In this document: positions 1 to 3,300 of the stretch, piece after piece
Position numbering within the stretch: the stretch's first letter is position 1
Layout: every line of letters starts with the position of its first letter
Origin: Candidatus Heimdallarchaeota archaeon
GTDB taxonomy: Archaea; Asgardarchaeota; Heimdallarchaeia; Heimdallarchaeales; Heimdallarchaeaceae
Reading direction: 5' to 3'
Assembly (NCBI GenBank): GCA_030668875.1
Contig: DAOVER010000073.1
Span: 1 to 11,615 of the forward strand
Length of the DNA stretch: 11,615 nt
The notes under the pieces: model-generated
What the model was told of the DNA's origin: nothing
What the model saw: only the letters and a program-made list of their open reading frames with translations
Databases searched by the model: none
Program-made: the position numbers and the translations under genes

Positions 1-178
1 ATTAGAACCAAGGAGCACTAAGCGCAACTGTAGGATGCAAATGGAGCACTTGCACACTCCGCTTCCTCCTACCCCTAATCATGAACCTCATGATTCTTCC
101 CCTCAACGCACGTGAGGGGACCCACTTAAACGACGGTCAGAATGCTTCTGGCAAGTTTGACCAAGTTTCATAACGTGC
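1..178 (-). mobile_element. Left end of a GC-rich, highly structured inserted element interrupting the beta-helix gene (class uncertain; possibly group II intron-like RNA); continues beyond position 1
   Basis: G+C is 89/180 (49%) in 1-180 versus 53/180 (29%) in 181-360. Four adjacent hairpins: ggtca/tgacc 135-162, tcccctca/tgagggga 98-120, aatcatga/tcatgatt 77-95, gtagga/tcctac 30-72 with inner ggag/ctcc 43-60 (GCAA tetraloop on the minus strand). The host repeat period breaks at the same point. Boundary is uncertain by a few nt (about 173-179). Confidence 0.55.
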
Positions 179-1054
179 GTAGTCATTACCAATACATGTA
201 TTATTTGTGATGACATTATATTTTGCTGCTTCTACATGTATACCATGTTCTGTGTTATCTGTGCAAATGTTGTTGAAAAGTGTATTCTCAAGTGAATTAC
301 TATTTTCTAGATATATCCCGTCAACATTGTTGTTATTACATGTATTATTTGAAATCAGTCCATAATCTAAGCTGCCTATATGAATACCATAATCGTTCTC
401 ATTACAGGTGTTATTATTTATTATGTGCCCTCTAGATAAGCTAGATGATCCAACTATGTGAATTCCATAGCCTATAATACTCTGTCCAGAAATACCTACA
501 TGTCCATTGAAAGTGTTGTCAGCAACAGTACAATTATTTGCGTCTAGATACAAACCTATATTGCTATCATTACATACATTATTTGTAATCGTTACAAAAT
601 CTGCTCCTAAAATCGCTATCCCTATTGTTTTATTGCTGTGAAAATAATTGTTCTCTATTATACATGTGTCGTCTGCAACAGTACCTCCAATATAGATAGC
701 ATAGTGTGTATCAGTATAAACTTCACAATTTCTGATGATAAAGTGTTGTGAAGTTCCCGCGACGAATATACCTATAATTGAATCATTAACAATTTTATAA
801 TTCTCAATTATATACGGAGTAGATTCTGAGCCATCTCCTTCTGAACTATATTTGGCAAAATCAACATCATTTATAATCTGAATATTATCAATTTGTGTTA
901 TTGAAAAACGAGGAAAGAAACCTTGATTCTCTTCTACCAGTATGATCTTTTCCTCAAACTCTTGATTAATCTCAACTTCAGCTGTAATTAAGAAACTTAA
1001 AACAAATAGTGATATAATAATACAAGAAACTCCTTTCTTCCTAACTTTAGACAC
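137..1054 (-). CDS. Secreted right-handed parallel beta-helix repeat protein (NosD/CASH, pectin lyase-like fold), apparently truncated at the C-terminus by the insertion
   Basis: The ORF track starts at 1165, but GTG at 1054 is more likely: AGGTG at 1067-1063 with an 8-nt spacer, TTTATTAA at 1097-1090, and a basic-then-hydrophobic signal peptide (SKVRKKGVSCIIISLFVLSFLI). It has a GDGSESTPYIIEN motif and repeated NNxCN..YGIxI coils. The last 13 aa (ARYETWSNLPEAF) come from the GC-rich insert. Confidence 0.85.
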   Translation of the reverse strand: MSKVRKKGVSCIIISLFVLSFLITAEVEINQEFEEKIILVEENQGFFPRFSITQIDNIQIINDVDFAKYSSEGDGSESTPYIIENYKIVNDSIIGIFVAGTSQHFIIRNCEVYTDTHYAIYIGGTVADDTCIIENNYFHSNKTIGIAILGADFVTITNNVCNDSNIGLYLDANNCTVADNTFNGHVGISGQSIIGYGIHIVGSSSLSRGHIINNNTCNENDYGIHIGSLDYGLISNNTCNNNNVDGIYLENSNSLENTLFNNICTDNTEHGIHVEAAKYNVITNNTCIGNDYARYETWSNLPEAF

Positions 1055-1180
1055 CCCATTTACACCTATTATTTCGAGTTTAACATGCTTTAATAAACAA
1101 TAGTAAGAGGCAATTTGCTTTGTATTCAGAGTTCTGTATAATTCTACACAAAGGGGTATGTCCAAGACAAGAAGAAGTTG

Positions 1181-1195
1181 TGGAAAATTTATAAA
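1181..1195 (+). promoter_or_regulatory. Archaeal BRE-TATA promoter of the 74-aa ORF (probably leaderless)
   Basis: GGAAAA (1181-1186) then TTTATAAA (1188-1195), 24 nt before ATG 1220. Confidence 0.55.
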
Positions 1196-1219
1196 GTATA
1201 CAAAGAATTTTTTGATAGA

Positions 1220-1444
1220 ATGAGTTATTTACAAGATGAGATAAGAGATAGATATGAAGGGAGAGTTGATCCACAAGCAAATAAGTGGACAGCATTTCGA
1301 ATATTACAGAAGAGTTTGGAAGAATTCGAGTTTGATGCAGAAGAAATACAATTATTAGGCGCAATTATCTCTGACGTAGTTAATAAGCATGGAGGGTCTA
1401 AAGAGGAGGTTTTTAGAGCATTGTACAGAGGCTATAAAATGTAA
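1220..1444 (+). CDS. Small hypothetical protein, 74 aa (MSYLQDEIRDRYEGR...ALYRGYKM), predicted helical
   Basis: Open frame with protein-like composition. ATG 1220 is preferred over GTG 1178 because the TATA box lies inside the GTG extension at leaderless spacing. No family recognised. Confidence 0.7.
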   Translation: MSYLQDEIRDRYEGRVDPQANKWTAFRILQKSLEEFEFDAEEIQLLGAIISDVVNKHGGSKEEVFRALYRGYKM

Positions 1445-2481: not shown

Positions 2482-3300
2482 TTAAACTAGTTTGACAAGA
2501 GCTTTTTCTCTTTTAAACAAACTAGTTGATATCTTAAACAAACCTGCTGCAATGATTAAGAGTACTATTGGTGCAACTACAATTCCTAGTATCATATTGT
2601 AGAAGAATAAAACCACCTGCAATCCAATCAACATTAATAGAGGTATTAGCAGTAATCCGCCTAATTGAGTCGCATCTCTTACGGTTGAAACTCTAGTGGA
2701 AACCAAAATCAAACCTTCAACAGCTATTATTGTGATTATCGGGCTTATTACGAATAGAAAAATTATCGATATCAGATCAGGAAAGAAAATCCTGCCTATC
2801 ATCGGATACAATATAATATCCATAACTAAAGAAAAGGTAACGATAGCAACTGTAGTTGCTATGAATGAAGGAATAAATGATGAGATAATCTTGCCTGTTA
2901 CTATTTCTTTCTCACTCAATGGTGTAGTCAATAATGCTTCCATCGTTTTTCTCTCTCTTTCTCCCGCTATTGTCTCTGCAGCAATTACCGATGTGATGAT
3001 AATTGGCATCATAGCAACTAAAACTAATACAATATATCCTATTCCAATAGTTGATTTAGCTTGATTTGTAAAGTCTTCCCAATCATCTATAGCTCCTGAT
3101 AGAATATTATCCATGAATGTTACAGAACTCTCATCACTATTTTCACCAGCTCCAAATGAACCAGAATATAGCATTACTTGTAAAGGAACTATCGCTCCTA
3201 TAACCAAAGGTAGTACTATAATTGAAAACACTATATATTTTGATTTTGTATAATCTTTTATGTCTTTTACTGAAAGAGCCCAAAGTCTTTTCCACTTCAT
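2482..3300 (-). CDS. ABC-2 type exporter permease subunit
   Basis: About 6 hydrophobic segments; IAGERERKTMEALLTTPLS...GK motif characteristic of ABC-2 permeases; ATGA overlap with the ATPase stop and a GGAGG SD inside the ATPase 3' end. Confidence 0.92.
   Translation of the reverse strand: MKWKRLWALSVKDIKDYTKSKYIVFSIIVLPLVIGAIVPLQVMLYSGSFGAGENSDESSVTFMDNILSGAIDDWEDFTNQAKSTIGIGYIVLVLVAMMPIIITSVIAAETIAGERERKTMEALLTTPLSEKEIVTGKIISSFIPSFIATTVAIVTFSLVMDIILYPMIGRIFFPDLISIIFLFVISPIITIIAVEGLILVSTRVSTVRDATQLGGLLLIPLLMLIGLQVVLFFYNMILGIVVAPIVLLIIAAGLFKISTSLFKREKALVKLV

Follow-up and report, generated by a model that had tools for sequence, protein, structure and literature searches.

A GC-rich folded block that interrupts a surface-protein gene of a Heimdall-group archaeon is very probably the right end of a protein-less IS607 derivative with an omega-RNA-like gene

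Why does a surface beta-helix gene at the very start of a Heimdallarchaeota contig run into a GC-rich, hairpin-packed block and stop there? The stretch of DNA analysed here (the window) comprises 11,615 nt of contig DAOVER010000073.1 in the Candidatus Heimdallarchaeota archaeon assembly GCA_030668875.1, and forms the start of contig C5 of a 99-contig metagenome-assembled genome (MAG; G000), where the assembly cuts through the block. The Asgard archaea with their Heimdall group are the archaeal group closest to eukaryotes. A preliminary description, made from the letters alone, took positions 1–180 for an end of some inserted element, distinguished from the short terminal inverted repeats of ordinary insertion sequences by an extended structured RNA or single-stranded DNA portion, and left it undecided whether the host gene was dead or restored by splicing. 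The boundary shared by many copies and the folded RNA bear out the first of these points. Positions 1–180 are very probably the right end of a protein-less element of ~393 bp, comparable to a miniature inverted-repeat transposable element, which derives from an IS607-family insertion sequence (IS) and carries an omega-RNA-like gene in Heimdall-group Asgard archaea.

The composition changes sharply at the junction, as had been claimed, from a G+C fraction of 0.494 (49.4%) at 1–180 to 0.294 (29.4%) at 181–360. Taken as RNA, the plus strand of 1–180 has a folding energy of −53.7 kcal/mol; dinucleotide shuffles give −40.3 ± 4.2, and not one of 200 does as well (z −3.16). The minus strand reaches a z of −1.69 only. 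Three of the four stems proposed earlier were found as such (77–95, 99–105/113–119 and 135–139/158–162), and the fourth, at 30–72, corresponds to a nested helix within 11–70 in the minimum-free-energy fold; the direct repeat GGAGCACT is read directly in the window at 12–19 and 43–50. Scanning the window for tRNA and tmRNA genes gave none. The junction itself is real and not an assembly chimera, which had been the concern for 170–190, since independent Logan contigs span it. Contigs from four runs of one marine-sediment study, which may be the source samples of the MAG, reproduce window 154–1353 (X1) or 154–1400 (X2 and X3) with zero differences, or 154–529 onward in pieces (X4), each bridging contig having 27 nt on the element side. 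Many other Logan contigs diverge at 177–184, mostly at exactly 180, and the summed depth over 95–188 is ~100 times that of the flank. Among the loose contig ends listed (15 more fell outside the list), none showed an empty-site allele of the window insertion.

The block belongs to a repeat family with a single exact boundary. BLAST of window 1–200 against its own genome returned 26 matches, each of which stops at position 180, give or take a few bases, behind ...CATAACGTGCGT, and the boundary 180/181 is common to 25 other copies in the same genome; the further copies that the preliminary description had proposed to look for are thus present. Window 1–180 is 99% identical to the corresponding part of a complete copy (C29:51793-51972) and 98% identical to that in C83. 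The complete copies of this subfamily (subfamily 1; C29:51575-51972 and C83) show 96–99% identity to the window, and a complete copy of subfamily 2 (C95:100420-100820) shows ~80%. Complete copies in this genome measure 393–396 bp, with one mini copy of 78 bp in C88, and we estimate the number of copies without an open reading frame (ORF) in the MAG at ~18–20. Fourteen other Heimdallarchaeota MAGs, from a species-representative genome collection, contain a 17-mer conserved in the element, and nhmmer confirms the element in those loci; five non-Heimdall, bacterial loci with the same 17-mer were discarded as chance matches, nhmmer finding no element in them. The following features of the window enter the argument.

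1–180, plus strand: right-hand 180 nt of the ~393-bp ORF-less IS607-derived element, subfamily 1, from copy identity and the boundary at 180 common to all copies.
1–94, plus strand: 3′ part of the RNA domain confined to the miniature elements and absent from the autonomous IS; nhmmer and blastn align only the element ends to the IS, and helices upstream covary between subfamilies.
77–95, plus strand: hairpin AATCATGA / TCATGATT, in miniature subfamilies 1 and 2, variable in the others and absent from IS copies.
95–180, plus strand: right-end module common to the autonomous IS607-family element (94–98% identity to the last 86 nt of the IS, C48:38764-38849); putative guide-proximal omega-RNA scaffold and recombinase right end.
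99–119, plus strand: hairpin CCCCTCA (99–105) / TGAGGGG (113–119), whose loop ACGCACG (106–112) is complementary to the last bases of the element; nearly invariant in 52 distinct right ends.
135–162, plus strand: stem GGTCA (135–139) / TGACC (158–162), with covariation and wobbles.
173–179, plus strand: terminal ACGTGCG, pairing with 107–113 (CGCACGT) as a predicted pseudoknot or long-range helix, from compensatory changes.
179–180, plus strand: GT, putative 2-bp crossover core, identical with the last two bases of the host ACCGT and of the right end (..GCGT).
181–200, plus strand: host DNA beside the right end; in an omega-RNA read-out of the kind known from TnpB elements, it would supply the guide.
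137–1165, minus strand: N-terminal fragment of the surface beta-helix gene, with the host part at 181–1165 and then 13 residues coded by the element, before a stop; C98 (locus L082) holds the C-terminal 440 residues.

The parentage of the element follows from its ends. Several right ends in the family follow genes in place of the miniature interior. In C48, the order is ACCGT, a left end of ~90 nt, an ORF of 196 aa, an ORF of 635 aa and a right end of 86 nt, 2723 bp in total, and the right-end module begins 3 nt past the tnpB stop and ends at the element boundary. A locus in another MAG (L048) has the same layout at 2726 bp, and C15 holds a form of 767 bp with tnpA only. The right end stands directly 3′ of tnpB in C48, C37, C87 and L048, with the same left-end architecture upstream of tnpA. 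The 196-aa protein, TnpA, matches NCBIfam NF033518 (IS607 family transposase) with 163.8 bits against a cut-off of 110, as well as Pfam Resolvase (8e-24) and MerR (9e-10), that is, a MerR-like helix-turn-helix N-terminal to a resolvase catalytic domain. The 635-aa protein scores 27.8 bits with Pfam PF07282, the TNB domain of TnpB and Cas12f (cut-off 26.3), and in its C-terminal part it resembles TnpB and Cas12f chains of solved structure. Where these solved proteins have (A)DxNAAxN, it reads NTHxNAAxN, a histidine replacing the third RuvC aspartate; the histidine is kept in at least 15 intact copies of 67–90% identity across Heimdall MAGs. The gene and its relatives are located as follows.

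L081:954-2861 (G000:C48:36853-38760): the 635-aa His-type TnpB-like protein, with homologues in C37, C87, L012, L025–L027, L029, L033, L034, L037, L040, L048, L056 and L057.

Miniature and IS right ends agree over 86–97 nt at 89–98% identity. Their left ends agree over ~40–45 nt, ~40 nt of them at 78–84% identity, both reading ACCGT, three variable positions, CAACTG and then AAWCTTAYYCAATCTTG. They further have in common a 40-nt block with TTTATATA, which the IS carries in its tnpA–tnpB intergenic region, 23 nt upstream of the tnpB start codon. Because the ends are common to the miniature and to an IS607-type element, the window element is to be read as a non-autonomous IS607 derivative: by sequence comparison, the autonomous partner encodes a serine recombinase and shares both of its ends with the miniature. 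What the miniature keeps of its 2.7-kb parent is ~45 nt of the left end, the TATA block preceding tnpB and the last 86–95 nt of the right end, and between these parts its interior consists of a folded RNA domain of its own, without coding remnants in a tblastn comparison with TnpA and TnpB. The search for mobile-element genes that the preliminary description suggested, among reverse transcriptase, Y1, TnpB, IscB and DEDD genes, ended with the TnpB-like gene of the autonomous partner, accompanied by an IS607 serine recombinase; no reverse transcriptase, Y1 or DEDD gene was seen beside any copy, in a survey that for DEDD and Y1 genes was not exhaustive over the whole genome.

Elements of several sizes lie between these two ends: 2.7 kb with tnpA and tnpB, 767 bp with tnpA only, 357–406 bp without ORF (four subfamilies), and as the shortest 78 and 56 bp, which hold little beyond the fused ends. 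Examples of the shorter members are given below.

G000:C15:30712-31483: tnpA only.
G000:C88:71839-71916: 78 bp.
L044: 56 bp.

The broken gene itself shows where the other half of the element lies. The minus-strand ORF at 137–1165 encodes a beta-helix protein that enters the element and stops after 13 foreign residues, ARYETWSNLPEAF; the earlier observation of 13 unrelated C-terminal residues is correct, and they are coded by the element. Equally, the paralogue in the window does end as described, with EDPYPL, a hydrophobic stretch and a basic tail. Contig C98 starts with the reverse complement of a subfamily-1 left end (99% identity over 140 nt), and window 1165–181, ACGGT and C98 joined together form a single open frame of 770 codons. 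Across the joint, this frame reads ..NNTCIGNDYGIYLEQ.., in longer form ...NNTCIGNDYGIYLEQELSS..., including NDYGIYL, which continues the coils (NDYGIHI, VDGIYL); the insert-free reading of the C5–C98 joint is ..GACTACGGTATT... After the joint follow more coils, an EDLYPYGL motif, acidic repeats, a hydrophobic segment and KKLK; with the insert taken out, the protein regains a C-terminal membrane anchor. Paralogues align with the frame in single high-scoring segment pairs over the joint, at 1e-111 for C48 (residues 26–732) and 7e-46 for C53 (residues 35–452). The beta-helix frame whose resumption was to be sought thus continues on a contig that begins with the other end of the element. In this reconstruction, the element is inserted at a TAC GGT (Tyr-Gly) codon pair within one coil, antisense to the gene, and splits it between C5 and C98; the gene is evidently broken unless the element excises.

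The exact ends were set by comparing filled and empty sites. ACCGT (once ACAGT) stands directly before every complete copy and left end, in IS and miniature alike. Excising ACCGT...GCGT (398 nt) leaves the host frames broken, and excising 399 nt, or equivalently 393 nt, restores them in all three testable cases. At the site of the C88 mini copy, a sister genome (G010) has two orthologues without insert, 91–92% identical in protein, in which the flanks abut and the pentamer occurs once (ACAGT in gene sense, ACGGT in G000). Since the empty orthologous site holds the pentamer once, ACCGT is host target DNA and not an element terminus, and by this comparison the element proper starts after ACCGT and ends with ..GCGT. 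The earlier reading of an inserted element end accordingly stands, refined in that ACCGT only looks like the left terminus and belongs to the host. A model with a 1-nt or a 2-bp 'TA' core and with ACCGT inside the element did not restore the frames and was superseded. GT is found at both junctions of the filled C88 site and once in the empty site, a pattern expected as the product of a serine recombinase with a 2-bp crossover core, so that crossover presumably takes place at this dinucleotide. The flanks of complete copies show no target-site duplication, the element has no long terminal inverted repeats, and apart from ACCGT the target sites are unrelated to one another. Separately, the invariant right-end segment AAACGACGGT holds, at window 133–137, ACGGT, the exact complement of the host target; this may be a chance 5-mer or may be tied to the handling of the target or target-adjacent motif (TAM).

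The following life cycle is the most likely. TnpA supplied in trans would excise the element as a double-stranded circle and insert it beside a host ACCGT via a 2-bp (GT) crossover, without target duplication. An internal promoter would give an omega (guide) RNA, ~240 nt long as far as the boundary and continuing into the flank, and a TnpB-like protein coded elsewhere could use this RNA to recognise the emptied site (ACCGT and flank), which would favour retention of the element. The many near-identical copies at unrelated sites speak indirectly for such mobilisation, and the element might still be mobile today.

The case for the RNA rests on covariation. In 17 elements of four subfamilies (357–406 bp) from several genomes, the TATA block TTTTTCTACGRGTTTATATAKGAAAGT, homologous to the tnpA–tnpB intergenic block of the IS, is conserved at 90% or more, the neighbouring sequence being free to vary. 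Seven pairs in the internal hairpins carry double changes across the four subfamilies; in one long internal hairpin, five pairs are double-changed, for example GC 8 / CG 7 / UA 1 and UA 7 / CG 6 / AU 3. The terminal helix of CGCACGU (107–113) with ACGUGCG (173–179) shows five independent double compensatory changes at five positions and two U·G wobbles among 52 right ends. In the stem 135–139/158–162, the fourth pair is U-A in 38 sequences, U·G in eight, C-G in six and C·A in none, and the first pair is G-C in 47 and G·U in five; as the G·U wobbles of this stem are permitted only on the plus strand, they indicate a plus-strand RNA. Covariation and z-scores together support a plus-strand RNA of ~240 nt, which would begin past the TATA block and finish at the transposon boundary. 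Its position and direction match, by analogy, those of TnpB guide (omega) RNAs, with the predicted pseudoknot beside the guide, and the layout is likewise that of an omega-RNA, a structured RNA after tnpB ending exactly at the boundary. The element thus appears to carry an omega-RNA-like gene and probably still makes a guide RNA; transcription would start from the TATA block and TnpB would use the product.

In a complete subfamily-1 copy elsewhere (L002:1282-1681), the conserved central loop GUCCCUCAG of the long hairpin specific to the element repeats the CCCUCA strand of the terminal hairpin (99–105). Either this loop or the 99–105 strand could possibly pair with UGAGGGG (113–119), which would give two alternative RNA folds.

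Several points weigh against the interpretation of the block as an element end with a guide RNA. The C5–C98 join rests on the continuity of the gene and not on an assembled bridge. The comparison with an uninterrupted orthologue of the window gene, which the preliminary description had recommended, failed, the best match among 30 relatives being 38% identical; no closer orthologue is found because the set of paralogues around this gene is so large. Rfam 15 gave nothing relevant on either strand of window 1–1200 (E up to 1) or of one complete copy (E up to 5). Only the last 86–95 nt of the putative RNA are common to the IS; the upstream ~150 nt are without counterpart there, and their role as a TnpB scaffold is a conjecture, no helices common to the 3′ coding region of the IS tnpB and the element-specific RNA domain being supported. 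The right end could be conserved partly for TnpA binding on the DNA and not for an RNA. The search listed no RNA runs holding the window stretch. Finally, the histidine at the third catalytic position makes the nuclease activity of the TnpB-like protein uncertain.

Some of these points would suit a different role of the RNA, in which the element would still be IS607-derived mobile DNA, with the folded RNA acting as a stabiliser or regulator of a transcript or as an antisense read-out into adjacent genes, or with the conserved right end serving mainly as a DNA-binding platform for TnpA, in place of a TnpB guide. Such a role would go well with a histidine at the RuvC-III Asp position in all of the at least 15 intact TnpB-like copies, with a 5′ RNA domain specific to the miniature, and with the lack of matches to the omega-RNA families of Rfam. 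We nevertheless consider it unlikely. The terminal helix and the boundary-side stem covary, with G·U only on the plus strand, as in an RNA that ends at the boundary; in the IS, the module comes directly past the stop codon of tnpB, which is where genes for TnpB guide RNAs lie; and the architecture and target-motif logic are like those of the characterised IS607 TnpB system (10.1101/2023.11.20.567912).

Returning to the guide-RNA interpretation, we offer one elaboration of it, tentatively and as more doubtful than not. The miniature could be a guide-RNA-only parasite of its parent, with its own promoter and an extra covarying 5′ RNA domain of ~150 nt, working with an unusual lineage of large His-type TnpB proteins; the extra domain may switch between RNA folds, and the protein may bind rather than cut.

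Whether splicing might save the gene has a clearer answer. A self-splicing intron, or an IStron-like chimera with a group I or II intron, would be removed from the mRNA and leave a functional gene. The length of ~400 nt, the GC-rich composition and the strong folding would all be in keeping with an intron, IS607-family elements with group I introns are known in Clostridia (10.1101/2023.11.20.567912; PMC4227781), and the host frames are restored when the insert is removed. Restoration of the frame, however, is expected from any clean insertion. No group I or II model of Rfam matched either strand of the complete copy at E up to 5 or the window at E up to 1, and the element has neither a GUGYG start nor a domain V, and lacks any conserved internal guide for a 5′ exon. 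In the autonomous IS, an intron core would not fit into the ~90 nt ahead of tnpA. Host ORFs of at least 100 aa were found at 13 right ends, five in sense and eight in antisense, with the window copy among the antisense cases; since the element is antisense to the gene, splicing cannot rescue it. With copies in both orientations in host genes and no intron model matched, the question of a dead or a spliced gene is settled against splicing, and we regard an intron as very improbable. Least credible of all is a reading as a bridge-RNA element of the IS110/IS1111 type, non-autonomous, or as a palindrome-associated element of IS200/IS605 that Y1 would mobilise: an internal loop complementary to the element's own terminus, subterminal hairpins and the absence of inverted terminal repeats and target duplication would be in its favour, but both ends are shared with elements coding for an IS607-type serine recombinase above the NCBIfam cut-off, the ORFs between or beside the ends are only those of serine TnpA and the TnpB-like protein (within the limits of the gene search given above), and the loop pairs with the element's own end and not with target DNA, the targets being unrelated beyond ACCGT.

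As an IS607 derivative, the element can be compared with the IS607 element of Clostridium botulinum described by Zedaveinyte et al., which has the target or TAM sequence TGGG, a right end ..TCGG and the core GG (10.1101/2023.11.20.567912). Both systems have a serine TnpA followed by tnpB, without inverted terminal repeats or target duplication; in both, the last two bases of the target are also the last two of the right end (TGGG and ..TCGG there, ACCGT and ..GCGT here), and a structured guide-RNA scaffold at the right end, which is predicted in our case, reads into the flank. Unlike the clostridial element, ours lives in an archaeal Heimdall-group host, uses the pentamer ACCGT, has no group I intron detected, and is associated with a TnpB-like protein of 635 aa with a histidine at the third catalytic position, both genes having been lost from the window copy. 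A second parallel is provided by palindrome-associated transposable elements (PATEs), protein-less derivatives of IS200/IS605 that often carry omega-RNAs used in trans (PMC10055086). Like PATEs, the miniature is short, ORF-less and multicopy, keeps both ends of the parent IS and a putative guide-RNA module, and would rely on transposase and TnpB in trans; unlike them, it descends from a parent that uses a serine recombinase and a double-stranded circle instead of a Y1 HUH enzyme and single-stranded DNA, and it has its own TATA block and an additional covarying RNA domain of ~150 nt that is absent from the parent. With IStrons, which combine a group I intron with IS605 or IS607 (PMC4227781), it has in common the IS607 family and a large folded RNA that fills the non-coding parts, but the search for a group I core was negative, host genes carry copies in both orientations, and no rescue by splicing is expected. 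Aloposons and other mobile elements of Heimdallarchaeum (PMC8813620) are unrelated to it. We found no description of this element in the literature searched.

The element explains a GC-rich hairpin island that recurs at ~28 contig ends, in surface-protein genes and elsewhere. It offers a testable transposon system of the Heimdall group with an ACCGT target motif, a serine transposase and a large His-type TnpB-like protein, together with a naturally occurring element that codes for no protein and whose cargo seems limited to a promoter and a predicted guide RNA. No general picture is changed; the element is of a known kind and not a new one. The finding should be of use in the annotation of Asgard MAGs, where broken genes and contig breaks come from the element, and it may interest those who work on TnpB guide RNAs.

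For the assembly at hand the effect is large. Thirteen right ends and 15 left ends of the repeat lie at contig ends, ~28 of the 198 contig ends of the MAG, and the repeat is a major cause of the fragmentation of this assembly. The contigs concerned typically end ~140 nt into the repeat and are listed here.

Contig ends inside the repeat (G000): C3, C4, C5, C11, C15, C16, C19, C26, C28, C30, C31, C37, C39, C43, C44, C47, C49, C53, C65, C71, C73 (both ends), C78, C81, C84, C85, C98 and C99.

The placement of insertions within codons shows a bias. The junction codon phase is identical in 13 of 13 host ORFs of the window's own genome; elsewhere, only 7 of 14 ORFs share it. Where ACCGT occurs in long ORFs of the window's own, AT-rich genome, 50% of the occurrences are read as ACC GTN, and for the complement 62% are read as NAC GGT; this codon usage, which keeps CG out of rare codons, explains most of the phase bias. 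The shared phase in 13 of 13 ORFs of the genome exceeds the 50–62% expected from it. A rule that lengths be multiples of three, with insertion between codons, had been suggested by the first copies (393/399, 396/402 and 78/84) and was refuted by lengths of 56, 394, 406, 767, 2723 and 2726. Several insertions hit the Asn-Asp-Tyr-Gly motif that recurs in the coils of beta-helix surface proteins; the genes of these proteins offer Tyr-Gly over and over and seem to be preferred as targets. A left-end fragment of the family also occurs in L091 (G010:C167) at ~3107–3153, ~1 kb from the empty orthologue of the C88 site.

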